NCBI GenBank assembly: GCA_964187785.1
Contig: OZ076409.1
Location: 70,806,001 to 70,870,000 of the forward strand
Direction: 5' to 3'
From: Amphiscolops sp. MND2022
Taxonomy: Eukaryota
Length of the DNA stretch: 64,000 bases
Under the pieces are notes generated by a model. That model was not told the DNA's origin. It searched no databases and saw only the letters and a list, made by a program, of their open reading frames with translations. Of this stretch, positions 591 to 38,596 are shown one piece after another; positions within the stretch are counted from its first letter, which is position 1, and each line of letters begins with the position of its first letter. The position numbers and the translations under genes are program-made.

Positions 591-635
591 GAGTACATTC
601 CATCCCCCCCTTCCGGGGGAGATGAGAATGTACTC
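591..635 (+). other. Internal bulged hairpin GAGTACATTC-CATC...GATG-A-GAATGTACTC (representative; one per 1.3-kb, F and G unit)
   Basis: Inverted repeat read directly; recurs about 200 nt upstream of the terminal hairpin in 1.3-kb units. Confidence 0.85.
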
Positions 636-841
636 GCAAAAAGCACCGAACTACGGCCCTTACCTTCCCGAGCTACGCAGTATAGGGATTACATATTGGT
701 TCCGACATTTTCATAGAGTTAAATCTTGGTAATCTGTCTGGATATGCAGAAAAATCAGCACGTGCCTTTTAATACCAAGTTGCTTACAACGACAATTATT
801 TTATATCAACGCCCCCATATTTATCAACGCCCCCCGTCCGT

Positions 842-861
842 GGGCATGCCGAGGCATGCCC
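842..861 (+). other. Conserved terminal palindrome GGGCATGCC-GA-GGCATGCCC (representative of 38 copies)
   Basis: Perfect 9-bp inverted repeat, extended by CGTC...GACG; lies about 35-55 nt upstream of the CTAG junction. Confidence 0.95.
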
Positions 862-904
862 TTCGACGACGTATACCAAGATATGCGTTAACGCGTTAGC
901 CTAG

Positions 905-13377: not shown

Positions 13378-14645
13378 GTGGCCGTGTCTTTTCGACGTGC
13401 TTTTGCATCGAGGAGTGGGTAGGGCCCCGCGACGACCTAGAAGAATTGGATGCTCACCGAAACGTGCAGAATTCTACGAGATCTCATAGTTTGAGCCATA
13501 CGATTTTGCTGAAATTTGGCATGTGGCCTGGAATTGGTGAGTAGGTAAAACGTGTAGGAGGTGATTTTTCCCAAATTCCACTGTGAGACGAGATATGGGC
13601 AAATAACGGTCCCAAAAATGGCAAAAATGCACTTTTTTCAAGTTTGTCAGCCCATATCTCGTTCCCAGGTGCCCGGAGCGGGACGCGTTAAGCTGATTAT
13701 AAACTCTAGGGTGTTGAGGCTGTACGGGGAAGTCAGGCCCGTTCCGATCGGACTTGTAGTCTTGGAGAAATAACGGTATTTTTGGGGAACCTTTTCTAAC
13801 GGTCCAGCTTATCTTTGCCATTTTTTCGAAAATGTACTCGCCTAAAGGCCTTCCCCTGGCCAAATTTACTCCCAGCAAAACCATTTGGCCCTAAATACGG
13901 AGTTTCAGCGTTCCAGCATTCCCGGGCGAAAAGTTGTGGGACTTGGAAAATTTTCAAAAATTTTCAAAAATTTTTTTTTTCGTTTTCCGGGCCCCCAATG
14001 AAGGGGAAACGACCCCCAACCAGTATTTTGAGTGAATTCATGTGGAAAGCCCTTGTTTTGACGAGAAAAATACCGTTTAGAACATCTTTTTATCTTGACT
14101 CAACGTTGACTTATGACGTTTTGAATGTGATGTAAGGATGTAGGAGGCATGTGATAAGTTGATGTTTTGAGTCTTTATCACATATGAAAGCGGTTGAGAT
14201 GCAAGCTGTCCTGCTCAAAACGTCTTTCGTTGTAATTTTCCAGTGCACCAATACCCTTTGGTGTCATATAAACATACTTTTCGTCGATATATTAACAATT
14301 TTAATGTATTTATTCCCATTTTTATTATCTTATAACTCAAAACAGTTGAGTACATTTCATCTCCCTTTCGGGGGAGATGAGAATGTACTCGCTAAAGACC
14401 TAGCGCCATGACCAAAAGTTTGAAACCCACGTTTTTTATCTTCTTACAGACTTGTTTTTGTATTTTTTCGGAATTTTTTAAAAATTAATATACTTGAAAT
14501 ACATTACTTGACTTTACTACTACAATCCACCTCCAACGTCAACGCCCCCCTGCTTGCATCAACGCCCACCGTCCGTGGGCATGCCGAGGCATGCCCTTCG
14601 ACGACGTATGCCAAATGCCCAGTGCCACGCAGTCATTATCGCTAG
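13378..14645 (+). mobile_element. 1.3-kb-class unit, D type (1268 bp)
   Basis: Near-identical to 23081-24348. Confidence 0.6.
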
Positions 14646-16641
14646 GTGCGGGGGGGAAACCCCAACAAAATTTTTGGAGGATTCGGGTAGGGTCCTGAAT
14701 CCGAGTTCAGTGCTGCCAGCTTTCGTTAAGAAAATTTGGATAGGATTCGGGATCTCGTGATCTAACCATAGGATTTTAAAGTTGGAGCGGCCCCCACCAG
14801 ATTTTCCGAAAATTAGCGCCCCCCACCGGGTTCCATACCCCGGAAAATTTTTTTCTGGCCACACGGGCGACCGTTAGGGGGTCATTTTAGGGGTAAAATT
14901 CATATTGGGCCACATAACTTTTTTTCTGTTGATTTAAAACTTTGGGACCCTGCTAAAAGTTTCTTGACCGTGTTGCAAGGGCTCCGGAGGTCCAAACCAA
15001 ATTTTTCTATCTTGAAGCTATCTCCAAGTACCCCCCCGCCCAAAACGTTATTTTTCCGGAAACGCAGGTTTTAGACCCGGAAGGAGTCGTCTGAGCGCGG
15101 GGTCGTTAGGTGATGTTTTGGGGACGGCCTTGAGACGAAGTGGGGGACATGCAGTTTGCCAACCCCAGTTTTCCCCCCGGACGGGAAATGACCGTTATAT
15201 GAGCGGCAAAAATGTCCCCCTCCACGTTTTACCGCTATTTCCGGTGTGAAGGAATGGGAGTAGCGCGTCGGGTGCCATATATCAAAAGTAGGTTTAGACA
15301 AGGATCTATCGGAAACATGTGGTTTGGGACCCCCTAGACCAACCCGTTAGCAGGAAATGGGGCTTCCGGCCCGTTTTTTTACGGTTAAAAACGGAAAATG
15401 GGCATTGAGGGGTAAATATCTCGTGAACGCGTGGAGCAATCGTGTCCATCACTACTACAAGGTTTCATACCCATGATATGGTGCCTTCAGGGGGGCAAAC
15501 AGATTTCCGCTATCTATCACCGTTACCGACTTGGCCCCCCAGCCTAACCGCTATGTGACCGGAAATGTCACTTTTTGAGCCCAAAGGGTCGGTCCCAGCC
15601 GGGGAACGTTAGGTAACTTATTGTAGTACTCAATGAGACGAGTTGGGGGATATAGTTTCAGTCACCCCCCGTTACCCCTTGGGACCGGAAATGACCGTTA
15701 TGTGGGTAAAATTGCAATTTTTGTGCTTTTTCGAGGGCATTTAGGTGCGGAAGGAGTGGTAATAGGTGCTTGGACACTATATGATGATAGGGAGGACGTG
15801 AGGCGAGCATTCGGAAATAACCGTTATGTTGACCCTAAAGTCCCCCTGGTACCGTAAACGACCGGAAATGGTCAAATGTTGTGTTTTTAGGGTACAAATG
15901 ATTAGAATTTTATGGAAAAAAGTACCTGGTCGGTGTTTCAACGGCTTGCAGTAGTGAACATAGTCATGAAACCTTGTGGGGGGTAACGGTATATAGCACC
16001 GGAAGTCCAAACCGTTGGAGAAAGGATAGGTATTTTGATTTTAAAATGCCTATAAGCGTACTTTTGTGGGTTGAATCGTTTCAATATCGACTAATTTGGA
16101 GATTTTTTTGACATTGAAGGTTTTTTCAATAGTTTCAGGGACCTCCAATGCTTCAATCAATATAACCGTTACCTTATGATAGCCTTTCAAGTTGGCCTGG
16201 TGTCAACTTGGAAGGGCTATCCTTCGAAAATCGTAATTCAAGTGTGTTTTTGAGTACGTTTTTATTACTTTAATATCAATTAGAGCCTAATCATTAGTTT
16301 GCCAACGACAAAAACTATGACGTGATGATACCGTTAGTAGAAGAATAGTTAACAATTTGTTGACAAAATTGATTTTTTTTGCATTTTAAATGTTTCCTAA
16401 ATGCCAGGAAAACAATTTATCTAATGAATGGTACTGATTGAACCCAAGTATCATTTGAAAAAAAGTTAAACATTGTTTTTTCGTTTCATTATGGAAGCTG
16501 AAACCTCACGTTTTAGGTCACTTAACGTCAACGCCACATACTTTACATCAACGCCCACCGTCTGTGGGCATGCCGAGGCATGCCCTTCGACGACGTATAC
16601 CAATTACATATATATCTACACCCACCCGCGGTAGCAGCTAG
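14646..16641 (+). mobile_element. Family A unit (1996 bp)
   Basis: Junction-bounded, homologous to 905-2878. Confidence 0.6.
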
Positions 16642-17931
16642 GTGCCGGTGTCTTTTTACACAATGGGGGAAGTTGCGCGGTTGGGGAGGGTCCCTGACGC
16701 GCTTCCGTGAGATCAGGTTTTTCAACTAGTGAAATCGACAAAGAAAATTGAGATCTCGTAAACTAGCCATACGATTTGGCTGAAATTTGGCACACGTACC
16801 CCCCTCGGCACGGTGAAGATGATTTCCTTCTGACGTTTTTCCCGCTAAACATTTTTTGTTGACCAAAATAACGGTTTTTGGGGTAAAATTTTCAACTTTT
16901 TTTAAATTTCATCTTATATCTCGCCACGGGTGCACGCTAGCGCTTCCGAACCTTGCTGACGAAAGTTTGCAAACTGTCTCAGGAATGCTGTGTGAAAATT
17001 TCAGCTCAATCGGACTTAAACTCGAGGAGATATAGCGTTTTTCCGGAGCGGGGGGGTTTCATTTTTCTAACGGTCCAGCTTATCTTTGCCATTTTTTAGG
17101 AAATGCACTCGCCTAAAGGCCTCCCCTGGCCGGTTTTATTCCCAGCAAAACCATTTGGCCCTAAATACGGAGTTTCAGCGTTCCAGCATTCTCGGGCGAA
17201 AAGTTGTGGGACTTAGAAAATTTCAAAAATTTTCAAAAAAATTTTTTTCGTTATTTGGGCCCCCAAAGTGGGGGAAAAGACCCCCCAACCAGTAAAGCAA
17301 GTGAATGCATGTGGAAAGGCCATGTTTAGAGGAGAAAAATGCCGTTTAGAACGTCTTTTTATCTTGGCTCAACGTTGACTTATGACGTTTTGAAGGTGAT
17401 GTTTGGAGGTGTAAAGCAAGTGAATAGTAAACGTTGTGAGTATTTATCTGATCTTAAAGCCATTGAGATGCAATATGATTGCTCAAAACGTAATTCATTG
17501 CAGTTTGGCAATCAATCAACACCCTTTGTTGTCGTTTGACATACTTTTTTGTTGTTAAAATAAAAAATTTTGTGTATTTATTCATTTTTTTCTCATCAAA
17601 TAACTTGGAACAGTTGAGTACATTCCATCCCCCCCTTCCGGGGGAGATGAGAATGTACTCGCAAAAAGCACCGAACTACGGCCCTTACCTTCCCGAGCTA
17701 CGCAGTATAAGGATTACATATTGGTTCCGACATTTTCATAGAGTTATATCTTGGTAATCTGTCTGGATATGCCGAAAAATCAGCACGTGCCTTTTAATAC
17801 CAAGTTGCTCACAACGACAATTATTTTATATCAACGCCCCCATATTTATCAACGCCCCCCGTCCGTGGGCATGCCGAGGCATGCCCTTCGACGACCCGCA
17901 CCAAAATATGCGTTAGCGCGGTAGCCGCTAG
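16642..17931 (+). mobile_element. 1.3-kb-class unit, C head (1290 bp)
   Basis: Near-identical to 8110-9411. Confidence 0.6.
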
Positions 17932-19205
17932 GTGCCGGTGTTTTTTTACACAATGGGGGAAGTTGCGCGGTTGGGGAGGGTCCCTGACGCGCTTCCGTGG
18001 TATCGGGTCTTTCAACCGATGAAAACGACATAAAAAATTGGGATCTCGTAAACTAGCCATACGATTTGGCTGAAATTTGGCACACGTACCCCCCTCGGCA
18101 CGGTGAAGATGATTCCCTACTGACGTTTTGCCCGCTAAACATTTTTTGTTGACCAAAATAACGGTTTTTGGGGTAAAATTTTGAACTTTTTTTAAATTTC
18201 ATCTTATATCTCGCCACGGGTACACGCTAGCGCTTCCAAACCTTGCTGACGAACGTTTGCAAACTGTTTCAGGAATGCTGTGTGAAATTTTCAGCTCAAT
18301 CGGACTTAAACTCGAGGAGATATAGCGTTTTTCCGGAGCGGGGGGGTTTCATTTTTCTAACGGTCCAGCTTATCTTTGCCATTTTTTCAAAAATGCACTC
18401 GCCTAAAGGCCTCCCCTGGCCGGTTTTATTCCCAGCAAAACCATTTGGCCCTAAATACGGAGTTTCAGCGTTCCAGCATTCCCGGGCGAAAAGTTGTGGG
18501 ACTTAGAATTTTTCAAAAATTTTCAAAATTTTTTTTTCCGTTATTTGGGCCCCCAAAGTGGGGGAAAGCACCCCCCAACCAGTAAAGCAAGTGAATGCAT
18601 GTGGAAAGCCCTTGTTTAGACAAGAAAAATGGCGTTTAGAATGTCTTTTTATCTTAATTTGACATTGACTTTTGTCGTTTTGAAGGTGACCGTTAGATAC
18701 AGAAAATTGATATTTTGAGTATTTATCCCATCTGAAAGCCATTGAGATACAACATGTTTTGCTCAAAACGTGTTTCATTGCAGTTCCGCTGTCCATTGAC
18801 ACCCTTTGATGTCTTTTGACGTAATTTTCTTTTCTATAATAACACTTTTTTTGTGTATTTATTCATTTTTTTCTCATCAAATAACTTGAAACAGTTGAGT
18901 ACATTCCATCTCCCTTCCCGGGGGAGATGAGAATGTACTCGCTAAAGGTCAGGAACTACGGTCTATATCTTCCACAACACAAAAGCAATTGAAAATTGTT
19001 TCAGTTTGTCGCAGAAAACTTTTCTTTTTGCACTCAGTGACTCGGCAAAGTGAACGATTTTGACCCATATTGAATCTTACTTTACCACAACTCATCTCTA
19101 ACGTCAACGCCCCCCACACACATCAACGCCCCCCGTCCGTGGGCATGCCGAGGCATGCCCTTCGACGACGTATAGCAAAATATATTCGAACGCGGTAGCC
19201 GCTAG
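17932..19205 (+). mobile_element. 1.3-kb-class unit, C-like head with alternative 3' module (1274 bp)
   Basis: 3' module shared with 25635-26904. Confidence 0.6.
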
Positions 19206-20519
19206 GTGCCCGGATTTCTATTCATTAAAGTATGTTGCGCGTGTGGGTAGGGCCCCGTGGCGCGCTCTTGTGTCCCTGTTCTCATAACTGCAATTTCCGG
19301 CAGCATTCTGAGCGATTTTCTAAACTATCCATACGATTCGGCTGAAATTTGGCATGTGAGTTCCTATGACAGTTCTAAGAAACATTTCCTACTGGCGTTT
19401 TGCCCGGAAAATTTTTTTTGTTGACTTATAACGGTTTTTTTGGCCAAAAAATGCAATTTTTTCAAAAAATTTTTTTTTCGGAGCCCATATCTTTTTTCAG
19501 GGTGCCCGGAGCGGGACGCGTTAAACTGATTATAAACTCTACGGTTCATGGGCTTTACGGAGAACCTAGGCTCGTTTCGATCGGACAAATAGTCTTGGAG
19601 ATATAACGGCATTTTTTGGGAATTTTTTGGAAATTTTTCTAACGGTCCAGCTTATCTTTGCCATTTTTTCGAAAATGTACTCGCCTAAAGGCCTCCCCTG
19701 GCCGTTTTTAATCCCAGCAAAACCATTTGGCCCTAAATACGGAGTTTCAGCGTTCCAGCATTCCCGGGCGAAAAGTTGTGGGACTTAGAAAAATTTCAAA
19801 ATTTTTCAAATTTTTTTTTCCGTTTTCCGCCCTCCCCCCCGAGGGGAAAAGACCCCCCAACCAGTAATTTGAGTGAATTCATGTGGAAAGGCCATGTTTA
19901 GAGGAGAAAAATGCCGTTTAGATCGTCTTTTTATTTTAACCTGTCGTTGACTTATGTTGTTTTGAAGGTGATGTTTGGATGTGTGAAGCATGTGAAAAGG
20001 TAATTTATTATGTCTTTAGCTCTTCTAAAAGCCATTGAGATACACGGTGTGCGACTCAGAACGTGTTTAATTCTAATTTAGCAATGCATCAACACATTTT
20101 TGTGTCTTTTGACTCGATTAAAAAATGTTTTCTTCCCAAAACTTTAAAAAAAATCAACAATTTTTCATCTTTTTTTCTGATCTCATGACTCGAAACAGTT
20201 GAGTACATTCCATCTCCCTTCCCGGGGGAGATGAGAATGTACTCTTTAGAGACCAGGTACCACAGTACTTACCTTCTCCGAGCAACGTCCATAAAAGTTC
20301 CGCTTTGATCCAGATATTTTGATATAATTTCATCTTTGTAATTTGACTGAAAATGAAGAAAATTCCGCACGTGCTCTTTTACATCAAGTATCTTAACAAC
20401 GCCATCTCTTTTACGTCAACGCCCCAAATTTTACATCAACGCCCACCGTCCGTGGGCATGCCGAGGCATGCCCTTCGACGACGTATACCAAGATATACAT
20501 CGAGCGCGGTAGCCGCTAG
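19206..20519 (+). mobile_element. 1.3-kb-class unit, H type (1314 bp)
   Basis: Closely similar to 30770-32085. Confidence 0.6.
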
Positions 20520-21793
20520 GTGCCGGGATTTCTATTCGTTCGAGTATGTGGCGCGTGTGGGTAGGGCCCCTGGCGCGCTCTTTTATTTCGGGTACACCTA
20601 CTCCAAATTCACGATGTGATTTCGACGATCTCGTAAACTAGCCACACGATTTGGCTGAAAATTGGCACACGTACCCCCCTCGGCACGGTGAAGATGATTT
20701 CCTACTGACGTTTTTCCCGCTAAACATTTTTTGTTGACCAAAATAACGGTTTTTGGGGTAAAATTTTCAACTTTTTTTAAATTTCATCTTATATCTCGCC
20801 GCGGGTACACGCTAGCGCTTCCAAACCTTGCTGACGAAAGTTTGCAAACTGTCTCAGGAATGCTGTGTGAAATTTTCAGCTCAATCGGACTTAAACTCGA
20901 GGAGATATAGCGTTTTTCCGGAGCGGGGGGGTTTCATTTTTCTAACGGTCCAGCTTATCTTTGCCATTTTTTCGAAAATGCACTCGCCTAAAGGCCTCCC
21001 CTGGCCGGTTTTACTCCCAAAAAAACCATTTGGCCCTAAATACGGAGTTTCAGCGTTCTAGCATTCTCGGGCGAAAAGTTGTGGGACTTAGAAAATTTCA
21101 AAAATTTTCAAAAAAATTTTTTTTTGTTATTTGGGCCCCCAAAGTGGGGGAAAGGACCCCCCAACCATTAATTTGAGTGAATGCATGTGCAAAGCCCTTG
21201 TATAGAGGAGAAAAATGCCGTTTAGAACGTCTTTTTATCTTTACTCAACGTTGACTTATGACGTTTTGAAGGTGACCGTTAGATATGGAAAATTGATGTT
21301 TTGAGTATTTATCTCATCTGAAAGCCATTGAGATACAACATGTTTTGCTCAAAACGGGTTTCATTGCAGTTTCGCTGTCTATTAACACCCTTTGGTGACT
21401 TTTGACATATTTTTGCTTTTATATAAAACCAATTTTTTGTGCATTTTTTCTTTTTTTTTCATCTAATATCTTGAAACAGTTGAGTACATTCCATCTCCCT
21501 TCCCGGGGGAGATGAGAATGTACTCGCTAAAAGCCAAGAACTACGGCCAATACCTTCCCGAGCTATGCACTACAAATATTGCATATGCATGCAGACCTTT
21601 TGATACATTTTTATCTTTGTAGATTGACTGGAAAAACCGAAAACTCTGTCCTGATTATACAAAGTTTCCTCACAACGACACATGTTTACGTCAACGCCCC
21701 ATAGTTCTTATCAACGCCCCCCGTCCGTGGGCATGCCGAGGCATGCCCTTCGACGACGTGCACCAAAATATATTCGAGCGCGGTAGCCGCTAG
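20520..21793 (+). mobile_element. 1.3-kb-class unit, B type (1274 bp)
   Basis: Head shared with the unit at 25635. Confidence 0.6.
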
Positions 21794-23080
21794 GTGGCCG
21801 GAAATTTTTTTTTTCATCAAAATCTTTGCCATTGGGGGAGGGGCCCCGGATGGCCAGTAGTACGGGATAGCTTCCTACCAAATCCAGGCGGAAAAAACGT
21901 GATTTTGGAAACTAGCCGTCAGAATTTGCTCAAATTTTGCATACGGCTTCCTATGACAATCCTAAGAACTAATCCCTACTGGCATTTTGCCCAAAAAACG
22001 CAAAAAGTTGGTCAAAATCTTAGTTTTTTGGTCAAAAAATGGCGTTTTTTCGAAAAAAAAATTTTTCAGAGACAATTACTCGTAACTGGTTCACCCAGCG
22101 CAAAAACGCCTAGCTGATTTATTGTTGGGCACTTCATGAGGAGTGCGTATACAAATTTTCGTCCAGATCGAAAAAAAAATGACTAAGTATTAGCCGGAAT
22201 TCGGACGCATTTTTTCGCAAATTTTTGAAAACCTAGTCTATCTCTGCCGTTTTTTGCCCAGATTTTTTTCCAGGTCCTCTCCTAAAGGCCTCCCCTGGCC
22301 GGTTTACTTCCCAGAAAAACCAATTGGCCCTAAATACGGAGTTTCAGCGTTCTAGCATTCCCGGGCGAAAAGATGTGGGACTTAGAAAAAATTCAAAATT
22401 TTTCAAAAAATTTTTTTTCGTTTTCCGGCCCCCCAATGAAGGGGAACGACCCCCCAACGAGGATTTTTGGTGAATTCACGTGGAAAGGCCTTGTTTTGTG
22501 GAGCAAATTGCCGTTTAGAGCAACTTTTTATCTTAACTTGACGTTGACCTCTGTCGTTTTGAATTTGATATTAGTATGTGCTGAGCATGTGAAAAGTTGA
22601 TGATTTCAGTTGTTCTCTCGTGTTCAAGCCATTGAGATACAAGCGGTAGTGATCAAAATGTGATTTATCGCAATTTGATGGTGCTTTTGGTGTATTTTGA
22701 TTCTTTTAAATAAAAAGTTGTTCTTTATATATTTGGTGTATTGATTCAAATGAACAAGAAACAGTTGAGTACATTTCATCTCCCCCCTTGTGGGGGAGAT
22801 GAGGATGTACCCGCTAAATGACACGCACAATGGCCTAATTTTATTTTTATGCGACATTTTCTAGGCTTTTGCGCAAGCCCACTAAAATTTAGACTGGTTT
22901 CCTTTTCTTTTACTCCAAAATTTTCCGTACTAACCACCTTACGCACCACCAGCTCAACGTAACATCTGTAACGTCAACGCCACACACTCTCACTAACGCC
23001 CACCGTCCGTGGGCATGCCGAGGCATGCCCTTCGACGACGTATGCCAAATAGCGCCACAGGGCGCAAACATTCCCGCTAG
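21794..23080 (+). mobile_element. 1.3-kb-class unit, E type (1287 bp)
   Basis: Near-identical to 37310-38596. Confidence 0.6.
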
Positions 23081-24348
23081 GTGGCCGTGTCTTTTCGACG
23101 TGCTTTTGCATTGAGGAGTGGGTAGGGCCCCGCGACGACCTAGAAGAATTGGATGCTCACCGAAACGTGCAGAATTCTACGAGATCTCATAGTTTGAGCC
23201 ATACGATTTTTCTGAAATTTGGCATGTGGCCTGGAATTGGTGAGTAGGTAAAACGTGTAGGAGGTGATTTTTCCCAAATTCCACTGTGAGACGAGATATG
23301 GGCAAATAACGGTCCCAAAAATGGCAAAAATGCACTTTTTTCAACTTTGTCAGCCCATATCTCGTTCCCAGGTGCCCGGAGCGGGACGCGTTAAGCTGAT
23401 TATAAACTCTAGGGTGTTGAGGCTGTACGGGGAAGTCAGGCCCGTTCCGATCGGACTTGTAGTCTTGGAGAAATAACGGTATTTTTGGGGAACCTTTTCT
23501 AACGGTCCAGCTTATCTTTGCCATTTTTTCGAAAATGTACTCGCCTAAAGGCCTCCCCCTGGCCGAATTTACTCCCAGCAAAACCATTTGGCCCTAAATA
23601 CGGAGTTTCAGCGTTCCAGCATTCCCGGGCGAAAAGTTGTGGGACTTAGAAAAATTTCAAAAATTTTCAAAAAATTTTTTTCCGTTTTCCGCCCTCCCCC
23701 CCGAGGGGAAAAGACCCCCCAACCAGTAATTTGAGTGAATGCATGTCAAAAGCCCTTGTTTTGACGAGAAAAATACCGTTTAGAACATCTTTTTATCTTG
23801 ACTCAACGTTGACTTATGACGTTTTGAATGTGATGTAAGGATGTAGGAGGCATGTGATAAGTTGATGTTTTGAGACTTTATCTCATATGAAAGCGGTTGA
23901 GATGCAAGCTGTCCTGCTCAAAACGTCTTTCGTTATAATTTTCCAGTGCACCAATACCCTTTGGTGTCATATAAACATACTTTTTGTCGATATATTAACA
24001 ATTTTAATGTATTTATTCCAATTTTTATTATCTTATAACTCAAAACAGTTGAGTACATTTCATCTCCCTTTCGGGGGAGATGAGAATGTACTCGCTAAAG
24101 ACCTAGCGCCATGACCAAAAGTTTGAAACCCACGTTTTTTATCTTCTTACAGACTTGTTTTTGTATTTTTTCGGAATTTTTTAAAAATTAATATACTTGA
24201 AATACATTACTTGACTTTACTACTACAATCCACCTTCAACGTCAACGCCCCCCTGCTTGCATCAACGCCCACCGTCCGTGGGCATGCCGAGGCATGCCCT
24301 TCGACGACGTATGCCAAATGCCCAGTGCCACGCAGTCATTATCGCTAG
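23081..24348 (+). mobile_element. 1.3-kb-class unit, D type (1268 bp)
   Basis: Near-identical to 13378-14645. Confidence 0.6.
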
Positions 24349-25634
24349 GTGCCGGGATTTCTATTCGATAAAGTATGTGGCGCGTGTGGGTAGGGTCCCT
24401 GGCGCGCTCTTGGGTATGGTGTTCACCAGCTAGGAAACAGGGGTCGATTTTTCGGGATCTCCTAAACTAGCCACACGATTTGGCTGAAATTTGGCACACG
24501 TACTCCCCTCGGCACGGTGAAGATGATTTCCTACTGACGTTTTTCCCGCAAAATTTTTTTTGTTGTCCAAAATAACGGTTTTTGGGGTAAAATTTTGAAT
24601 TTTTTTTAAATTTTATCTTATATCTCGCCACCGGTTTACGCTAGCGCTTCAAAACCCTGCTAAAGAAAGCTTGCAAACTGTCTCAGGAATGCGGTGTGAA
24701 ATTTTCAGCTCAATCGGACTTAAACTCAGGGAGATATAGCGTTTTTCCGGAGCGGGGGGGTTTCATTTTTCTAACGGTCCAGCTTATCTTTGCCATTTTT
24801 TCGAAAATGCACTCGCCTAAAGGCCTCCCCTGGCCGGTTTTATTCCCAGCAAAACCATTTGGCCCTAAATACGGAGTTTCAGCGTTCCAGCATTCCCGGG
24901 CGAAAAGTTGTGGGACTTAGAAAAGTTCAAAAATTTTCAAAAATTTTTTTTCCGTTTTCCGCCCTCCCCCCCCTAGGGGAAAAGACCCCCCAACCAGTAA
25001 TTTGAGTGAATTCATGTGGAAAGGCCATGTTTAGAGGAGAAAAATGCCGTTTAGAACGTCTTTTTATCTTGGTTCAACGTTGACTTATGACGTTTTGAAG
25101 GTGATGTTTGGAGGTGTAAAGCACGTGAATAGTAAACGTTATGAGTATTTATCTGATCAGAAAGCCATTGACATGAATATGGTTTGCTCAAAACGTAATT
25201 CATGGCAGTTTGGCAATCAATCAACACCCTTTGTTGTCGTTTGACATACTTTTTTGTTGTTATGATAAAAAATTTTGTGTATTTATTCATTTTTTTCTCA
25301 TCAAATAACTTGAAACAGTTGAGTACATTCCATCCCCCCTTCCGGGGGAGATGAGAATGTACTCGCAAAAAGCACCGAACTACGGCCCTTACCTTCCCGA
25401 GCTACGCAGTATAAGGATTACATATTGGTTCCGACATTTTCATAGAGTTAAATCTTGGTAATCTGTCTGGATATGCAGAAAAACCAGCACGTGCTTTTTT
25501 ATACCAAGTTGCTTACAACGACAATTATTTTATATCAACGCCCCCATATTTATCAACGCCCACCGTCCGTGGGCATGCCGAGGCATGCCCTTCGACGACG
25601 TTTACCAAGATATACATCGAGCGCGTTAGCCTAG
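24349..25634 (+). mobile_element. 1.3-kb-class unit, B type (1286 bp)
   Basis: Junction-bounded, B body. Confidence 0.6.
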
Positions 25635-26904: not shown

Positions 26905-28193
26905 GTGCCCGGATTTCTATTCATTAAAGTATGTTGCGCGTGTGGGTAGGGCCCCGTGGCGCGCTCTTGTGTCCCTGTTCTAAAATCTGTAATTTCCGGC
27001 AGCATTCTGAGCGATTTTCTAAACTATCCATACGATTCGGCTGAAATTTGGCACACGTACCCCCCTCGGCACGGTGAAGATGATTTCCTACTGACGTTTT
27101 TCCCGCAAAATTTTTTTTGTTGTCCAAAATAACGGTTTTTGGGGTAAAATTTTGAATTTTTTTTAAATTTTATCTTATATCTCGCCACCGGTTTACGCTA
27201 GCGCTTCAAAACCCTGCTAAAGAAAGCTTGCAAACTGTCTCAGGAACGCGGTGTGAAATTTTCAGCTCAATCGGACTTAAACTCGGGGAGATATAGCGTT
27301 TTTCCGGAGCGGGGGGGTTTCAATTTTCTAACGGTCCAGCTTATCTTTGCCATTTTTTCGAAAATGCACTCGCCTAAAGGCCTCCCCTGGCCGGTTTTAT
27401 TCCCAGCAAAACCATTTGGCCCTAAATACGGAGTTTCAGCGTTCCAGCATTCCCGGGCGAAAAGTTGTGGGACTTAGAAAAGTTCAAAAATTTTCAAAAC
27501 ATTTTTTTTCCGTTTTCCGCCCTCCCCCCCTAGGGGAAAAGACCCCCCAACCAGTAATTTGAGTGAATTCATGTGGAAAGGCCATGTTTAGAGGAGAAAA
27601 ATGCCGTTTAGAACGTCTTTTTATCTTGGCTCAACGTTGACTTATGACGTTTTGAAGGTGATGTTTGGAGGTGTAAAGCACGTGAATAGTAAACGTTATG
27701 AGTATTTATCTGATCTGAAAGCCATTGAGATGAACATGGTTTGCTCAAAACGTAATTCATGGCAGTTTGGCAATCAATCAACACCCTTTGTTGTCGTTTG
27801 ACATACTTTTTTGTTGTTATAATAAAAAATTTAGTGTATTTATTCATTTTTTTCTCATCAAATAACTTGAAACAGTTGAGTACATTCCATCCCCCCCTTC
27901 CGGGGGAGATGAGAATGTACTCGCAAAAAGCACCGAACTACGGCCCTTACCTTCCCGAGCTACGCAGTATAAGGATTACATATTGGTTCCGACATTTTCA
28001 TAGAGTTAAATCTTGGTAATCTGTCTGGATATGCAGAAAAACCAGCACGTGCTTTTTTATACCAAGTTGCTTACAACGACAATTATTTTATATCAACGCC
28101 CCCATGTTTATCAACGCCCCCCGTCCGTGGGCATGCCGAGGCATGCCCTTCGACGACGTATACCAAGATATGTTCGAGCGCGGTAGCAGCTAG
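26905..28193 (+). mobile_element. 1.3-kb-class unit, H head / B body mosaic (1289 bp)
   Basis: Head as at 19206, body as at 24349. Confidence 0.6.
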
Positions 28194-29479
28194 GTGCCCG
28201 GATTTCTATTCATTAAAGTATGTTGCGCGTGCGGGTAGGGTCCCTTGCGCGCTCTTGGGTATGGTGTTCACCAGCTAGGAAACAGGGGTCGATTTTTCGG
28301 GATCTCCTAAACTAGCCACACGATTTGGCTGAAATTTGGCACACGTACCCCCCTCGGCACGGTGAAGATGATTTCCTACTGACGTTTTTCCCGCAAAATT
28401 TTTTTTGTTGTCCAAAATAACGGTTTTTGGGGGAAAATTTTGAACTTTTTTTAAATTTCATCTCATATCTCGCCACCGGTTTACGCTAGCGCTTCAAAAC
28501 CCTGCTAAAGAAAGCTTGCAAACTGTCTCAGGAATGCGGTGTGAAATTTTCAGCTCAATCGGACTCAAACTCAGGGAGATATAGCGTTTTTCCGGAGCGG
28601 GGGGGTTTCATTTTTCTAACGGTCCAGCTTATCTTAGCCATTTTTTCGAAAATGTACTCGCCTAAAGACCTCCCCTGGCCGGTTTTATTCCCAGCAAAAC
28701 CATTTGGCCCTAAATACGGAGTTTCAGCGTTCCAGCATTCCCGGGCGAAAAGTTGTGGGACTTAGATAATTTCAAAAATTTTCAAAAAATTTTTTTCCGT
28801 TTTCCGCCCTCCCCCCCTAGGGGAAAAGACCCCCCAACCAGTAATTTGAGTGAATTCATGTGGAAAGGCCATGTTTAGAGGAGAAAAATCCCGTTTAAAT
28901 TGTCTTTTTATCTTTATTCAACGTTGACTTATGACGTTTTGAAGGTGATGTTTGGAGGTGTGAAGCACGTGAAAAGTAAACGTTATGAGTATTTATCTGA
29001 TCTGAAAGCCATTGAGATGCAACCTGTTTTGCTCAAAACGTAATTCATATCAATTTGGTAGTCAATAAACACCCTTTGTTGTCATTTGACATCTTTTTTT
29101 GTTGATATAAGAAAAAATTTCGTGTATTTATTCATTTTTTTCTCAACAAATAACTTGAAACAGTTGAGTACATTCCATCCCCCCTTCACGGGGGAGATGA
29201 GAATGTACTCGCAAAAAGCCCCGAACTACGGCCCTTACCTTCCTGAGCTACGCAGTATAAAGATTGCATATTGGTTCCGACATTTTGATAGAGTTATATC
29301 TTGGTAATCTGTCTGGGTATGCAGAAAAACCAGCACGTGCTTTTTTATACCAAGTTGCTCACAACGACATTTATTTTATATCAACGCCCCCATATTTATC
29401 AACGCCCCCCGTCCGTGGGCATGCCGAGGCATGCCCTTCGACGACGTATACCAAGATATGTTCGACCGCGTTAGCCTAG
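28194..29479 (+). mobile_element. 1.3-kb-class unit, mosaic B type (1286 bp)
   Basis: First ~40 nt as at 26905, then as at 24349. Confidence 0.6.
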
Positions 29480-30769
29480 GTGCCCGGATTTCTATTCATT
29501 AAAGTATGTTGCGCGTGTGGGTAGGGCCCCGTGGCGCGCTCTTGTGTCCCTGTTCTAAAATCTGTAATTTCCGGCAGCATTCTGAGCGATTTTCTAAACT
29601 ATCCATACGATTCGGCTGAAATTTGGCACACGTACCCCCCTCGGCACGGTGAAGATGATTTCCTACTGACGTTTTTCCCGCAAAATTTTTTTTGTTGTCC
29701 AAAATAACGGTTTTTGGGGTAAAATTTTGAATTTTTTTTAAATTTTATCTTATATCTCGACACCGGTTTACGCTAGCGCTTCAAAACCCTGCTAAAGAAA
29801 GCTTGCAAACTGTCTCAGGAATGCGGTGTGAAATTTTCAGCTCAATCGGACTGAAACTCGGGGAGATATAGCGTTTTTCCGGAGCGGGGGGGTTTCATTT
29901 TTCTAACGGTCCAGCTTATCTTTGCCATTTTTTCGAAAATGCACTCGCCTAAAGGCCTCCCCTGGCCGGTTTTTTTCCCAGCAAAACCATTTGGCCCTAA
30001 ATACGGAGTTTCAGCGTTCCAGCATTCCCGGGCGAAAAGTTGTGGGACTTAGAAAAGTTCAAAAATTTTCAAAAAATTTTTTTTTCCGTTTTCCGCCCTC
30101 CCCCCCTAGGGGAAAAGACCCCCCAACCAGTAATTTGAGTGAATTCATGTGGAAAGGCAATGTTTAGAGGAGAAAAATGCCGTTTAGAACGTCTTTTTAT
30201 CTTGGCTCAACGTTGACTTATGACGTTTTGAAGGTGATGTTTGGAGGTGTAAAGCACGTGAATAGTAAACGTTATGAGTATTTATCTGATCTGAAAGCCA
30301 TTGAGATGAATATGGTTTGCTCAAAACGTAATTCATGGCAGTTTGGCAATCAATCAACACCCTTTGTTGTCGTTTGACATACTTTTTTGTTGTTATAATA
30401 AAAAATTTTGTGTATTTATTCATTTTTTTCTCATCAAATAACTTGAAACAGTTGAGTACATTCCATCCCCCCTTCACGGGGGAGATGAGAATGTACTCGC
30501 AAAAAGCCCCAAACTACGGCCCTTACCTTCCTGAGCTACACAGTATAAAGATTGCATATTGGTTCCGACATTTTGATAGAGTTATATCTTGGTAATCTGT
30601 CTGGGTATGCAGAAAAACCAGCACGTGCTTTTTTATACCAAGTTGCTCACAACGACATTTATTTTATATCAACGCCCCTATATTTATCAACGCCCCCCGT
30701 CCGTGGGCATGCCGAGGCATGCCCTTCGACGACGTATGCTCAAGATATACCCCGAGCGCGTTAGCCTAG
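29480..30769 (+). mobile_element. 1.3-kb-class unit, H head / B body mosaic (1290 bp)
   Basis: Head as at 26905. Confidence 0.6.
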
Positions 30770-32085
30770 GTGCCCGGATTTCTATTCATTAAAGTATGTT
30801 GCGCGTGTGGGTAGGGCCCCGTGGCGCGCTCTTGTGTCCCTGTTCTCATAACTGCAATTTCCGGCAGCATTCTGAGCGATTTTCTAAACTATCCATACGA
30901 TTCGGCTGAAATTTGGCATGTGAGTTCCTATGACAGTTCTAAGAAACATTTCCTACTGGCGTTTTGCCCGGAAAATTTTTTTTGTTGACTTATAACGGTT
31001 TTTTTGGCCAAAAAATGCAATTTTTTCAAAAAAATTTTTTTTCGGAGTCCATATCTTTTTTCAGGGTGCCCGGAGCGGGACGCGTTAAACTGATTATAAA
31101 CTCTACGGTTCATGGGCTTTACGGAGAACCTAGGCTCGTTTCGATCGGACAAATAGTCTTGGAGATATAACGGCATTTTTTGGGAATTTTTTGGAAATTT
31201 TTCTAACGGTCCAGCTTATCTTTGCCATTTTTTCGAAAATGTACTCGCCTAAAGGCCTCCCCTGGCCGTTTTTAATCCCAGCAAAACCATTTGGCCCTAA
31301 ATACGGAGTTTCAGCGTTCCAGCATTCCCGGGCGAAAAGTTGTGGGACTTAGAAAAATTTCAAAATTTTTCAAATTTTTTTTTCCGTTTTCCGCCCTCCC
31401 CCCCGAGGGGAAAAGACCCCCCAACCAGTAATTTGAGTGAATTCATGTGGAAAGGCCATGTTTAGAGGAGAAAAATGCCGTTTAGATCGTCTTTTTATTT
31501 TAACCTGTCGTTGACTTATGTTGTTTTGAAGGTGATGTTTGGATGTGTGAAGCATGTGAAAACGTTATTAATTGTGTCTTTAGCTCTTCTAAAAGTCATT
31601 GAGATACACGGTGTGTGACTCAGAACGTGTTTAATTCTAATTTAGCAATGCATCAACACTTTTTTGTGTCTTTTGACTCTGTTTTAAAAAATTTTTCCGA
31701 CTAAAATCAAAAATTATTCATAATTATTCACATTTTTTTTCTGATCTCATGACTCGAAACAGTTGAGTACATTCCATCTCCCTTCACGGGGGAGATGAGA
31801 ATGTACTCTTTAGAGACCAGGTACTACAGTACTTACCTTCCCCGAGCAACGCCCCATAAAAATTGCGTTTTGATCCAGATATTTTGACATAATTTTATCT
31901 TTGTAATTTGACTGAAAATGAAGAAAATTCCGCACGTGCTCTTTTACATCAAGTATCTTAACAACGCCATCTCTTTTACGTCAACGCCCCATATTTTACA
32001 TCAACGCCCACTGTCCGTGGGCATGCCGAGGCATGCCCTTCGACGACCCGCACCAAAATATGCTCCCAAGCGCGGTAGCGGCTAG
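30770..32085 (+). mobile_element. 1.3-kb-class unit, H type (1316 bp)
   Basis: Closely similar to 19206-20519. Confidence 0.6.
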
Positions 32086-34060
32086 GTGCGGGGGGGAAAC
32101 CCCAACAAAATTTTTGGAGGATTCGGGTAGGGTCCTGAATCCGAGTTCAGTGCTGCCAGCTTTCGTTAAGAAAATTTGGATAGGATTCGGGATCTCGTGA
32201 TCTAACCATAGGATTTTAAAGTTGGAGCGGCCCCCACCAGATTTTCCGAAAATTAGCGCCCCCCACCGGGTTCCATACCCCGGAAAATTTTTTTCTGGCC
32301 ACACGGGCGACCGTTAGGGGGTCATTTTAGGGGTAAAATTCATATAGGGCCACATAACTTTTTTTCTGTTGATTTAAAACTTTGGGACCCTGCTAAAAGT
32401 TTCTTGACCGTGTTGCAAGGGCTCCGGAGGTCCAAACCAAATTTTTCTAGCTTGAAGCTATCTCCAAGTACCCCCCCGCCCAAAACGTTATTTTTCCGGA
32501 AACGCAGGTTTTTGACCCGGAAGGAGTCGTCTGAGCGCGGGGTCGTTAGGTGATGTTTTGGGGACGGCCTTGAGACGAAGTGGGGGACATGTAGTTTGCC
32601 AACCCCAGTTTACCCCCCGGACGGGAAATGACCGTTATATGAGCGGGAAAATTGCCCCCCTCCACGTTTTACCGCTATTTCCGGTGTGAAGGAGTGGGAG
32701 TAGCGCGTCGGGTGCCATATATCAAAAGTAGGTTTAAACAAGGATCTATCGGAAACATGTGGTTTGGGACCCCCTGGACCAACCCGTTAGCGGGAAATGG
32801 CGCTTCCGCTTCCTTTTTTTACTGCTAAAACCGTAAAATGGGCATTGAGGGGTAAATATCTCGTGAACGCGTGGAGCTACGGTGTCCTTCACTACTACAA
32901 GGTTTCATACCCATGATATGGTGCCTTCAGGGGGGCAAACAGATTTCCGCTATCTATCACCGTTACTGACTTGGCCCCCCAGCCTAACCGCTATGTGACC
33001 GGAAATGTCACTTTTTGAGCCCAAAGGGTCGGTCCCAGCCGGGGAACGTTAGGTAACTTATTGTAGCACTCAATGAGACGAGTTGGGGGACATAGTTTCA
33101 GTCACCCCCCGTTACCCCTTGAGACCGGAAATGACCGTTATGTGGGTAAATTTGCATTTTTTATACTCTTTGAAGTGCATTTATGTGCGGAAGGAGTGGT
33201 AATAGGTGCTTGGACACTATATGAGGTAAGGGAGGACGTGAGGCGAGCATTCGGAAATAACCGTTATGTTGACCCTAAAGTCCCCCTGGTACCGGAAGTG
33301 ACCCGTAATGGTCAAATTTTGTGTTCAAAGGGTACAAATGTTTGGTGTTTTATGGATAACAGTGCCTATTAGGTGTTTCGACGGTCTGCAGTCGTGAACA
33401 TAGTCATGAAACCTTGTGGGGGGTAACGGTATATAGCACCGGAAGTCCAAAACTTTGGAGAAAGGATAAGTGTTTTGGTTTTAAAATGTCTTTCGGCCTA
33501 CTTTTGTCGACTATTATGGTCTATTTTTGAAAAATAAAGTTTTTCCATATAGTTTCAGAGACTCCGAAACCTCAACCAACATAACCGTTACGTTATGATA
33601 GCCTTTCAAGTTGGCCTGGTGTCAACTTGGAAGGGCTATCCTTCAAAAATCATTAATCAAGTGTGTTTTTGAGTATGTTTGTATTACTTTAGAATCAATT
33701 AGAGCTTCAAGAAAAGTTTGCCAACGACAAAAACTATGTCGTGATGATTCCGTTATTAGAATAATGGTTAAGAAAATGTTGATAAATTTGATTTTTTACA
33801 TTTCAAATGTGTCCTAAATGCCAGAAAACCTCTTTACCAAACAAATGGTTTTGAGTGAATTGTATATAACAGCTAATAAAAGTTCAAATTGAATCTTACG
33901 TTTCATTATTCAAGCTAAAACTTCATAACATAGTTTAATTAACGTCAACGCCACACACTTTACATCAACGCCCACCGTCCGTAGGCATGCCGAGGCATGC
34001 CTTTCGACGACGTATACCAAATTCCACCCACACAACACCCCCGAGCGCGGTAGCAGCTAG
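32086..34060 (+). mobile_element. Family A unit (1975 bp)
   Basis: Junction-bounded; compensatory hairpin variant 33983-34002. Confidence 0.6.
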
Positions 34061-35335
34061 GTGCCGGTGTTTTCTTCACTTTTGAGGATGTTGCGCGTGT
34101 GGGTAGGGCCCCTGGCGCGCTCCGTTGTCCCCCTGTTTATATCTTCGTAATTTTGAACAATTTTTTGGGATCTCGAAAACTGGCCACACGATTTGGCTGA
34201 AATTTTGCATGCGGCTTCCTATAACACTTCTAAGAACTAATCCCTAGTGGCGTTTTGCTGGGAAAATTTTTTTTGTTGACTTATTCACATTTTTAGGGTC
34301 AAAAAAAGGCGTTTTTTTGAAAAATTTTTTTTTCAGAGACGATTACTCGAAACTGGTGCACCCAGCGCAGTAACGCCTAGCTGATTTATTGTTGGGCATT
34401 TCATGAGGAGTCCGTATACAAATTTTTGTCCAAATCGGATAAAAATTGATTGAGAAATAACTGAAAATTTGAGGAATTTTTTTGGATATTTTCGAAAACC
34501 CAGTCTATCTCTGCCGTTTTTTGCCCAGATTTTTTTTGAGACACTCTTCTAAAGACCTCCCCTGGCCGGTTTTCCTCCCAGCAAAACCATTTGGCCCTAA
34601 ATACGAAGTTTCAGCGTTCTAGCATTCCCGGGCGAAAAGTTGTGGGACTTAGAAAAAATTTTTGGAAACGCAAAATTTGTAAAGTCAACTTCAGGTCTCA
34701 CAAAGTCAAGAAACTTCCACACTACTAGTATTGCAAGTGAATGCATGTGGAAAGTACTCGAATAGACGAGAAAAATGAGCTATAGAACAGCTCTGTAGCT
34801 TAACTTGACGTTGACTTATGACAATTTTAGTGTGAGCCTGCTATGTGAGATAAAAATTCAAAATTGAAAATCGAAGCTAAGTCTCGTCCAAAACTCATCG
34901 GAACACGTTCAATCCATCCCAGAGCGGTTTAATTCCAGCTATATAATGCAGCTACACTATTCAAGATCATTTGATCCACTTACATTAGTTTTGACACCAT
35001 ATTATTCATCCGATAGCACAAAACAATTGAGTACATTCCATCTCCCCTCCGTGGGAGATGAGAATGTACTCGCTAAAGTCCAGGTACTACAGCCCATATT
35101 TGTTTTTATGCGGCGCTCTTTGTGCTAGTGCGCACCCGTATTAACCTTTTAACTGATTTTCTTTTGTCTGTACTTTGACTTTGACTTGACATATGCTGAA
35201 CGTTTTGTACTTACAACATACACATGACAAACGTCAACGCCACATCCTTGCATCAACGCCCACCGTCCGTGGGCATGCCGAGGCATGCCCTTCGACGACG
35301 TATGCCAAAGATATACCTGGAGCGCGTTAGCCTAG
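34061..35335 (+). mobile_element. 1.3-kb-class unit, singleton (1275 bp)
   Basis: B-like left hairpin, E-like middle, 3' part related to the 38597 unit. Confidence 0.55.
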
Positions 35336-37309
35336 GTGCGGGGGGGAAACCCCAACAAAAATTTTGGAGGATTCGGGTAGGGTCCTGAATCCGAGTTCAG
35401 TGCTGCCAGCTTTCGTTAAGAAAATTTGGATAGGATTCGGGATCTCGTGATCTAACCATAGGATTTTAAAGTTGGAGCGGCCCCCACCAGATTTTCCGAA
35501 AATTAGCGCCCCCCACCGGGTTCCATACCCCGGAAAATTTTTTTCTGGCCACACGGGCGACCGTTAGGGGGTCATTTTAGGGGTAAAATTCATATTGGGC
35601 CACATAACTTTTTTTCTGTTGATTTAAAACTTTGGGACCCTGCTAAAAGTTTCTTGACCGTGTTGCAGGGGCCCCGGAGGTCCAAACCAAATTTTTCTAT
35701 CTTGAAGCTATCTCCAAGTACCCCCCCGCTCAAACCGTTATTTTTCCGGAAACGCAGGTTTTTGACCCGGAAGGAGTCGTCTGAGCGCGGGGTCGTTAGG
35801 TGATGTTTTGGGGACGGCCTTGAGACGAAGCGGGGGACATGTAGTTTGCCGACCCCAGTTTACCCCCCGCACGGGAAATGACCGTTATATGAGCGGGAAA
35901 AATGCCCCCCTCCACGTTTTACCGCTATTTCCGGTGTGAAGGAGTGGGAGTAGCGCGTCGGGTGCCATATATCAAAAGTAGGTTTAGACAAGGATCTATC
36001 GGAAACATGTGATTTGGGACCCCCTGGACCAACCCGTTAGCAGGAAATGGGGCTTCCGGCCCGTTTTTTTACGGTTAAAAACGGAAAATGGGCATTGAGG
36101 GGTAAATATCTCGTGAACGCGTGGAGCTACGGTGTCCTTCACTACTACAAGGTTTCATACCCATGATATGGTGCCTTCAGGGGGGCAAACAGATTTCCGC
36201 TATCTATCACCGTTACGGACTTGGCCCCCCAGCCTAACCGCTAAGTGACCGGAAATGTCACTTTTTGAGCCCAAAGGGTCGGTCCCAGCCAGGGAACGTT
36301 AGGTAACTTATTGTAGTACTCATTGAGATGAGTTGGGGGACATAGTTTCAGTCACCCCCCGTTACACCTTAAGACCGGAAATGACCGTTATGTGAGTAAA
36401 TTTGCCGTTTTTGTCCTATTTGAAGGGCATTTAGATGCGGAAGGAGTGGTAATAGGTGCTTGGACACTATATGATGTAAGGGAGGATATGAGGCGAGCAT
36501 TCGGAAATAACCGTTATGTTGACCCTAAAATCCCCCTGGTACCGTAAACGACCGGAAATGGTCAAATTTTGTGTCTATTGGGTACAAATGTTGGGTATTT
36601 TGTAGATAAAAGTATCTATTAGGTGTTTCGACGGTCTGCAGTAGTGAACATAGTCATGAAACCTTGTAGGGGGTAACGGTATATAGCACCGGAAGTCCAA
36701 ACCGTTGGTGACAGGATAGGTTTTTTGGTTTTAAAATGTCTTTCGGCGTACCTTTGTCGACTATTAAGGACTATTTTTAAAAATTAAAGATTTTCCATAT
36801 AGTTTCAGAGACTCCGAAACCTCAACCAACATAACCGTTACCTCATGATAGCCTTTCAAGTTGGCCTGGTGTCAACTTGGAAGGGCTATCCTTCAAAAAT
36901 CGTCAATCAAGTGTGTTTTTGGGTATGTTTGTATCATTTTAGAATCAATTAGAGCTTCAAGAAAAGTTTCCCAACAACAAAAACTATGTCGTGAAGATTC
37001 CGTTACTAGAATTATAGTTAGCAAATTGTTGAGAAAAATGTTTTTTTTTCCAAATTAAATGTGTCCTAAATGCCAGGAAACTTGTTTAACTAACAAATGG
37101 TATTGATTGGAATGTATGTAACAGATTTATAAAAGTTCAAATTGATTATTAAGTTTCATTATGGAAGCTGAAACGTAATATTTTAGTTTAATTAACGTCA
37201 ACGTCACATACTTTTTATCAACGCCCACCGTCTGTGGGCATGCCGAGGCATGCCCTTCGACGACGTATACCAAATACATACCTAACGACGCCCGTACATG
37301 CCGGGCTAG
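35336..37309 (+). mobile_element. Family A unit (1974 bp)
   Basis: Junction-bounded, homologous to 905-2878. Confidence 0.6.
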
Positions 37310-38596
37310 GTGGCCGGAAATTTTTTTTTTCATCAAAATCTTTGCCATTGGGGGAGGGGCCCCGGATGGCCAGTAGTACGGGATAGCTTCCTACCAAATC
37401 CAGATGGAAAAAACGTGATTTTGGAAACTAGCCGTCAGAATTTGCTCAAATTTTGCATACGGCTTCCTATAACAATCCTAAGAACTAATCCCTACTGGCA
37501 TTTTGCCCAAAAAACGCAAAAAGTTGGTCAAAATCTTAGTTTTTTGGTCAAAAAATGGCGTTTTTTCGAAAAAAATTTTTTTCAGAGACAATTACTCGTA
37601 ACTGGTTCACCCAGCGCAAAAACGCCTAGCTGATTTATTGTTGGGCACTTCATGAGGAGTGCGTATACAAATTTTCGTCTAGATCGGAAAAAAAATGACT
37701 AAGTATTAGCCGGAATTCGGACGCATTTTTTCGCAAATTTTTGAAAACCTAGTCTATCTCTGCCGTTTTTTGCCCAGATTTTTTTCCAGGTCCTCTCCTA
37801 AAGGCCTCCCCTGGCCGGTTTACTTCCCAGAAAAACCAATTGGCCCTAAATACGGAGTTTCAGCGTTCTAGCATTCCCGGGCGAAAAGATGTGGGACTTA
37901 GAAAAAATTCAAAATTTTTCAAAAAAATTTTTTTCGTTTTCCGGCCCCCCAATGAAGGGGAACGACCCCCCAACGAGGATTTTTGGTGAATTCACGTGGA
38001 AAGGCCTTGTTTTGTGGAGCAAATTGCCGTTTAGAGCAACTTTTTATCTTAACTTGACGTTGACCCCTGTCGTTTTGAATTTGATTTTAGTATGTGTTGA
38101 GCATGTGAAAAGTTGATGATTTCAGTTGTTCTCTCGTGTTCAAGCCATTGAGATACAAGCGGTAGTGATCAAAATGTGATTTATCGCACTTTGATGGTGC
38201 TTTTGGTGTATTTTGATTCTTTTAAATAAAAAGTTGTTCTTTATATATTTGGTGTATTGATTCAAATGAACAAGAAACAGTTGAGTACATTTCATCTCCC
38301 CCCTTGTGGGGGAGATGAGGATGTACCCGCTAAATGACACGCACAATGGCCCAATTTTATTTTTATGCGACATTTTCTAGGCTTTTGCGCAAGCCCACTA
38401 AAATTTAGACTGGTTTCCTTTTCTTTTACTCCAAAATTTTCCGTACTAACCACCTTACGCACCACCAGCTCAACGTAACATCTGTAACGTCAACGCCACA
38501 CACTCTCACTAACGCCCACCGTCCGTGGGCATGCCGAGGCATGCCCTTCGACGACGTATGCCAAATAGCGCCACAGGGCGCAAACATTCCCGCTAG
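37310..38596 (+). mobile_element. 1.3-kb-class unit, E type (1287 bp)
   Basis: Near-identical to 21794-23080. Confidence 0.6.

Follow-up and report, generated by a model that had tools for sequence, protein, structure and literature searches.

A 64,000-nucleotide stretch of contig OZ076409.1 from Amphiscolops sp. MND2022 (GCA_964187785.1, positions 70,806,001 to 70,870,000 of the forward strand; the whole of it is hereafter termed the window) is a gapless head-to-tail train of 39 units, all running in a single direction with no spacer DNA between them. Otherwise unlike sequences are joined in it exactly, with a fixed polarity and unit by unit, at the 7-bp word CTAGGTG. This joining is very probably site-specific, as an earlier note made from the letters of this DNA had proposed in place of homologous exchange; the claim is supported by the boundary statistics and by the junctions of a unit family that lacks the conserved hairpin block. 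Judging from the sequence features described below, we put at about one half the probability that the units are non-autonomous (passenger) transposons of the rolling-circle type, mobilized, on this reading, by an HUH nicking enzyme whose gene would lie elsewhere.

Organization of the array

With the units defined by cutting after CTAG, their sizes range from 1.07 to 2.38 kb, the first and last being clipped by the window edges. Global identity separates them into 11 sequence families, which follow one another in the order BABAABAADABBCBEDBBBBBCAFAEIB in the left zone of the window and GJJGKHGGGJJ in the right zone. The short families B, C, D, E, F and I (1268-1316 bp) show a mutual identity of 62-79%; A, G, J, H and K are alignable to other families in blocks only. 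An abrupt border at 41157/41158 separates two pools of families, each randomly ordered inside: adjacent like units number 7 against 6.9 expected by chance in one zone, and 4 against 2.9 in the other. The lack of any surplus of like neighbours within the zones points to the units having arrived singly, not via local duplication. The border itself may have recorded time during polar growth, or may be where two arrays fused. The units are gene-less, the open reading frame (ORF) scan of the window having recovered none above 158 aa. The Rfam scan of the window gave no match at gathering score (sub-threshold matches only, in 13 kb scanned), the tRNA scan was empty, and Tandem Repeats Finder reported just 3 short arrays in the window.

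Neighbours change at the heptamer

The word CTAGGTG occurs 38 times on the plus strand of the window and never on the minus strand, against an expectation from composition of 3.1 per strand, and every one of these sites is a unit boundary, where CTAG/GTG (the slash marks the joint) is invariant. Within the units there are 100 further CTAG words, of which none is followed by GT, implying that the target exceeds a tetranucleotide. Junctions were compared as the 666 pairs formed by the 37 palindrome-bearing members, pairs that are not independent given several members per family. All 18 pairs with the same head (the head and the next 200 nt in common) carry different tails, identity 5' of the heptamer extending for 0-6 nt; likewise, 10 of the 11 same-tail pairs part 0-4 nt 3' of it, the exception being 19202/26901, which continues for 74 nt. 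A match of at least 10 nt on both sides is found in a single one of the 703 pairs of all 38 junctions.

These observations agree with the earlier note, which had similarity stop at the heptamer and took this word, not the hairpin upstream, as the point of exchange: the palindrome ends 40-55 nt 5' of CTAG at 37 of the 38 junctions. Its account of the repeated D and E units proved correct in coordinates, lengths, tails and neighbours (Table 1), the two D copies being 98% and the two E copies 99% identical. The tail that it had seen in front of two different heads is indeed the same at 901 and 41154, where it precedes an A head and a G head, respectively. Co-segregation of tails with the downstream unit, which it had named as the pattern that would speak against its proposal, occurs in just 1 of the 11 same-tail pairs.

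At the 27 junctions of the left zone, tail similarity goes with the body upstream (rho 0.56, p=0.001) as opposed to the head that follows (rho 0.03, p=0.27). The tail-head correlation over all 37 junctions (rho 0.11, p=0.03) stems from the two-zone layout, and neither correlation is significant at the 9 right-zone junctions. Base-pairing of a tail with the head after it was likewise not significant at 12, 20 or 30 nt, which gives no support to a choice of neighbours by pairing across the joint. A 7-bp inverted repeat spans one junction (2867-2888), a feature that is not general. Given that only 7 bp are common at the joint, that the tails follow the upstream body, and that unit K is joined without the hairpin block, the joining does not represent ordinary homologous exchange.

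Family K is joined without the end block

A phmmer search with the minus-strand read-through of unit K recovered 17 proteins, of which one is an unrelated repetitive protein and the other 16 are short, unnamed ORF calls from further copies of K. Ten antisense calls, one of them the window's own, cross from the downstream head into the K tail. Seen at the protein level only where they lie outside the window, these ten joints involve eight different heads, six of those on one same K tail. A histidine stands at the joint in all ten (the reverse of GTG or of ATG, i.e. RTG), and beyond it nine of the calls read as the heptamer predicts and one deviates. The K-like calls are spread over contigs of 21 different sizes, from 114 kb to 1.52 Mb, perhaps of one assembly. 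On this evidence K is a real family that is present on other contigs with other downstream heads. As K lacks the block and yet meets eight heads at the same word, the end block is unnecessary for joining. The notion of K as a truncated unit was rejected in light of its copies on other contigs. K as the relic of an enzyme gene was also rejected, Pfam and two word-index searches being empty and the phmmer matches consisting of K ORF calls and the unrelated protein; a likeness to a retroelement polymerase, noted by eye only, gained no support.

Terminal structures of the units

A conserved end block, the GGGCATGCC block, is present in all units except K. At the opposite end, a head hairpin with a KAGGGN loop is recognizable in 33 of the 38 heads. 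Its stems differ among the families and covary, an arm pairing better with its own partner than across families (-7.6 versus -5.1 kcal/mol; permutation p=1e-5, for 11 representatives of which some are related). In 16 of 17 distinct heads the hairpin is more stable on the top strand, a preference which fits the need of single-strand chemistry. The head layout (e.g. 14646-14702), a small hairpin followed by a T-rich strand and a second hairpin, is reminiscent of the 3' half of Sm-class small RNAs, with the T-rich word kept only loosely and Rfam giving no match. No terminal inverted repeat between head and tail was found in the six units tested, and the pairing of a unit's own head and tail is weak and window-dependent.

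In the G and J units, a second, decayed end block is located about 190 nt inward. A third long internal palindrome (3859-3896 and its equivalents) lies about 250-290 nt before the end of the short units and about 500 nt before that of G and J; it is kept across the short, G and J families and in a distant metagenomic relative, L058, described below.

Table 1. Features of the window, by position in the 64,000-nt stretch
Feature	Position	Strand	Description
Whole array	1..64000	+	39 ORF-less units, 11 families
Unit D, copy 1	13378..14645	+	1268 bp; context A-D-A
Unit D, copy 2	23081..24348	+	1268 bp; context E-D-B
Unit E, copy 1	21794..23080	+	1287 bp; context B-E-D
Unit E, copy 2	37310..38596	+	1287 bp; context A-E-I
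Junction heptamer CTAG/GTG, A to D	13374..13380	+	1 of 38
Further junction heptamers near D and E units	14642, 21790, 23077, 24345, 37306, 38593	+	
End block with 20-nt palindrome (14577-14596)	14558..14609	+	38 of 52 columns invariant in 38 copies
Variable tail separating block from heptamer (D example)	14610..14641	+	Hypervariable within family B
Head hairpin (A example), loop KAGGGN	14679..14702	+	Begins 32-38 nt 3' of heptamer
Unit K	50276..51345	+	Normal head, no end block, terminates at CTAG; own imperfect hairpin at about 51080-51125
Decayed inner second copy of end palindrome	50006..50025	+	About 190 nt before working copy; no heptamer after it
Chimeric unit	26905..28193	+	C-type head over the first 137-146 nt or so, B body thereafter; switch inside second conserved head block
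Right zone	41158..64000	+	Contains all 11 G/J/K/H units; left zone (1-41157) contains none

Homologous exchange acts on the same units

Homologous exchange via the conserved blocks acts in addition to the heptamer-exact joining, as evidenced by mosaic bodies, swapped heads, hypervariable tails and tail types common to A and G units. The unit bodies are mosaic: in D copy 2, a tract at unit positions of about 555-680 is nearer to B and C units than to D copy 1, and the unit at 26905-28193, with its C-type head on a B body, is best read as a product of such exchange. Among nine B units the block is 99.5%, the body 93-96% and the tail 77% alike, and eleven B heads are just 60% alike at positions 70-120. 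The tail types common to A and G units stand out with z values of 6-9 (556 cross-family pairs). The proposal of the earlier note that the tail stays with its body is accordingly valid at the family level and for recent duplicates, but not for every copy: of 31 pairs whose last 200 nt are near-identical, just 7 keep the tail at 90% or more, owing to the hypervariability of the B-family tails. That note had overlooked this homologous process, along with the head hairpin and the dispensability of the end block.

Composition and internal structure of the units

All 12 family representatives show phasing of AAA/TTT tracts with a period of about 10.5 bp, at a strength that none of 200 shuffles attains, which suggests selection for bending or nucleosome wrapping. 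With a CpG observed/expected ratio of 1.0, and with CpG transitions constituting only 6 of 63 isolated substitutions, there is little sign of methylation decay in the window. Unit size shows no constraint among the short families, their net indels matching random drift. Old internal duplications are discernible in an A unit (14646-16641; 503-bp and 126-bp spacing) and in a J unit (59274-61650; 550-bp and 196-bp spacing), and plus-strand CCGGAAR words recur in the A, G and H units.

Relatives in other sequence data

The public run X1 contains 0.24 of the sampled window words; no RNA dataset was listed among the sets containing such words. In a short-read contig of this run, an A head is joined at 14641 to a non-D tail. 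Among metagenomes, the short palindrome pattern recovered 77 loci; L058 is the one relative among these, the other 76 resembling chance matches, and the long pattern had no match there. L058 has a body about 70% alike, a block that differs from the window majority at 3 of 52 positions, and a junction at 880-886 reading CGAG/GTG, after which an H-like head follows. Run X1 and this distant relative show the same architecture as the window. A further relative, P0018, has a deviating reading on the tail side of the word, and at other places the head of P0018 follows the word in its usual form. Together with L058, this suggests that only the first-position C and the terminal GGTG are fixed across lineages. 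Pattern scans of prokaryote genomes gave no match, and those of viral contigs none or chance matches. The lack of genes and of prokaryote matches points to a probable eukaryotic host.

Proposed mechanism and competing explanations

The array combines polarity, exact boundaries, a random order of families in each zone, two terminal hairpins and a family without the end block. To explain these features, we propose that an HUH enzyme acting in trans would nick the top strand at G/GTG and that two nick sites in succession would delimit a unit, freed in the form of a single-stranded circle. The second signal could be supplied by the head of the next unit, and for this reason K would need no end block. 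The circle would then be joined into an existing tail-head junction, recreating the site on both sides, such that arrays might grow from a mixed pool; a slower homologous conversion via the common blocks would meanwhile scramble bodies, heads and tails. Such nicking and joining would account for the top-strand hairpin and the K family, and for why internal CTAG words go unused and the word can vary on its tail side.

Several points weigh against this proposal. No enzyme gene was found, there being none among the ORFs of the window and the interior of K not being a known protein; nor was any circle, solo copy, empty site or array end seen. The ends are unlike those of any described Helitron group, all five G heads are without the loop motif, and the top-strand preference may be partly due to the richness of the head strand in G (0.36). 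If insertion were free at any junction, the sharp border at 41157 would be unaccounted for, and the invariant, asymmetric 7-bp word common to neighbours also resembles the overlap of a tyrosine recombinase.

The last point identifies the main rival to the HUH model, a rival that we regard as rather unlikely, namely that the units are tyrosine-recombinase cassettes, either Crypton-like or integron-like on folded single strands, with CTAGGTG as the strand-exchange core and circles leaving and integrating at any core. Integron cassette arrays are polar and mixed, and the polarity and cassette-like shuffling seen in the window are expected under such a recombinase. The same asymmetric word flanks every unit unchanged at 38 of 38 junctions, and its length is comparable to the terminal direct repeats of Cryptons (4-6 bp) and to recombinase cores (6-8 bp; PMC3212892, which like the other sources cited here was available in part), sizes that we count in its favour. 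However, the 11-13 bp inverted binding sites of a classical core are absent, both flanks being the most variable parts of the unit and showing no complementarity between neighbours. The changes on the tail side of the word in L058 and P0018 would be ill tolerated by a homology-dependent overlap, and no recombinase gene was found in the window. An origin via RNA, through target-specific retroposition or reverse splicing, is considerably less probable. The units do start with GTG and end with CTAG, giving them GT...AG ends, and their heads resemble structured RNA with G-T pairs on the top strand; but none of the 38 heads is 5'-truncated, there is no poly(A), and no catalytic RNA of the Rfam collection is matched. 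Hammerhead-like cores amount to just 7 chance words, all away from the junctions, the donor words after GT are poor, and the L058 end reads GAG.

The two explanations that dispense with a dedicated joining reaction are the least probable of all. An old satellite shuffled solely by unequal crossing-over and conversion, in which the heptamer would be a conserved protein-binding word, is in keeping with the evidence that homologous exchange occurs (mosaic bodies, chimeric heads, common A/G tail types) and with the strong A-tract phasing, which suggests a chromatin role. Crossing-over would, however, copy both flanks, contrary to the near absence of junction pairs matching on both sides and of same-head pairs with the same tail, and the meeting of the block-less K with eight heads largely refutes a satellite-only history. 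An assembly artefact, or a concatenation of small circles such as organellar minicircles or satellite-virus-like replicons, is an equally improbable source, even though the discrete size classes, conserved block and phased A-tracts might be expected of such replicons and the K-like calls come from a metagenome-type assembly. Seven common bases are too few to guide an assembler, the X1 short-read contig and L058 each span a junction of unlike units, K-like sequence is found on contigs of many different sizes, and no size constraint or viral match is apparent. The array is real, and the case for it is stronger than the one given in the earlier note.

Comparison with known mobile elements

In Helraiser the left end is needed and the right-end hairpin dispensable (PMC4778049), and in the IS91 family termination can fail and the target is the same as, or similar to, the tetranucleotide at the element's own end (PMC13181058). 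The units of the window recall both in their asymmetric ends, lack of terminal inverted repeats, lack of duplication beyond the common word, dispensable terminator hairpin and target near their own end word. As far as the excerpts describe HLE1, the Helraiser group (PMC4778049, PMC11417382), its members further share with them a 3' CTAG preceded by a dispensable palindrome, precise head-to-tail joints, the absence of a target duplication and degenerate internal repeats. The 3' CTRR of HLE1 agrees with the CTAG of all 38 junctions, though not with the CGAG of L058. In place of the 5' TC, all 38 heads have GTG after CTAG; the hairpin lies 40-55 nt from the 3' end instead of 10-12 nt, and is missing from K; and all array joints fall between G and G instead of between A and T. 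The described HLE1 tandem arrays are single-family and often truncated, whereas the window has mixed, full-length families.

The Helitron2/Helentron/HINE group, including FoHeli1-2 (PMC5148889, PMC4067079), has hairpins at both ends, the 3' one being 38-51 bp inside in FoHeli1/2. Such a pair of hairpins, with the 3' member 40-50 bp inside, is seen in the window units except K, which lacks the end block, and G, which is without the loop motif. The 12-16 nt asymmetric terminal inverted repeats, T-rich ends and T-to-T target given for the group in these sources are absent from the window. On the whole, the units appear to behave like a non-autonomous rolling-circle element, yet fall outside HLE1 and HLE2 as the accessible parts of PMC11417382, PMC5148889 and PMC4067079 define them.

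Replitrons (PMC10288648) show a short direct repeat at both ends, a comparable hairpin no more than about 50 bp from the right end, and HUH copy-and-paste; the 7-bp word, which flanks each unit and is common to neighbours, may correspond to such a repeat. In the description available, Replitrons are dispersed, with fuzzy ends and target duplications, whereas the window units are junction-targeted without such ends or duplications, and no Rep gene is seen in the window. IS91 (PMC13181058) shares functionally unlike ends with subterminal palindromes, a target tetranucleotide near its own end word and a terminator that can fail, but it is bacterial, carries tnpA and uses any matching tetranucleotide, unlike the window with its unused internal CTAG words. 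Cryptons (PMC3212892) share short direct repeats (the core) at both ends and a proposed circular intermediate. Differences from Cryptons and integron cassettes alike are that the window has neither recombinase nor gene cargo, and two unrelated hairpins in place of one folded site around a core. Dimers of DDE transposons with terminal inverted repeats, or of MITEs, with one common target duplication do not fit, the heads starting with GTG and the tails ending in varied words with no inverted match. No catalytic RNA motif of a ribozyme retrozyme or group II intron was found, whether by Rfam or as a hammerhead core at the junctions.

Known Helitron arrays are, in the portions of the reports at hand, single-family and often truncated, or lie among satellites or telomere repeats (PMC12628747, PMC12001565, PMC13404089, PMC13085455), and a centromere atlas describes tandem repeats of mosaic structure that the recombination of the host copies (bioRxiv 10.64898/2026.09.17.752431, likewise in part). 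A literature search outside repeat databases, supplements and most subscription journals turned up no description of a junction-targeted, mixed-family array. The array possibly represents a new class.

Implications

In its boldest form, which we advance tentatively, the new class would be a eukaryotic, site-specific system of cassettes, in which a putative enzyme assembles non-coding cassettes into very long, polar, integron-like trains on many chromosomes, its only targets being its own junctions. The A-tract-phased bodies would maybe have a structural role as centromeric or chromosome-end DNA, and the order of the zones would record time. The defined ends of the units, namely the heptamer, the head hairpin and the end block, are usable as a probe for such an enzyme. 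If the proposal is true, these mobile elements would spare host genes by landing solely on their own joints, and would represent a direct, homology-free route from a transposon to a mixed satellite of large units. The enzyme would then be a eukaryotic integrase for kilobase cargo, polar and precise, with its site regenerated at each insertion, and may be of interest for ordered multi-cassette insertion.

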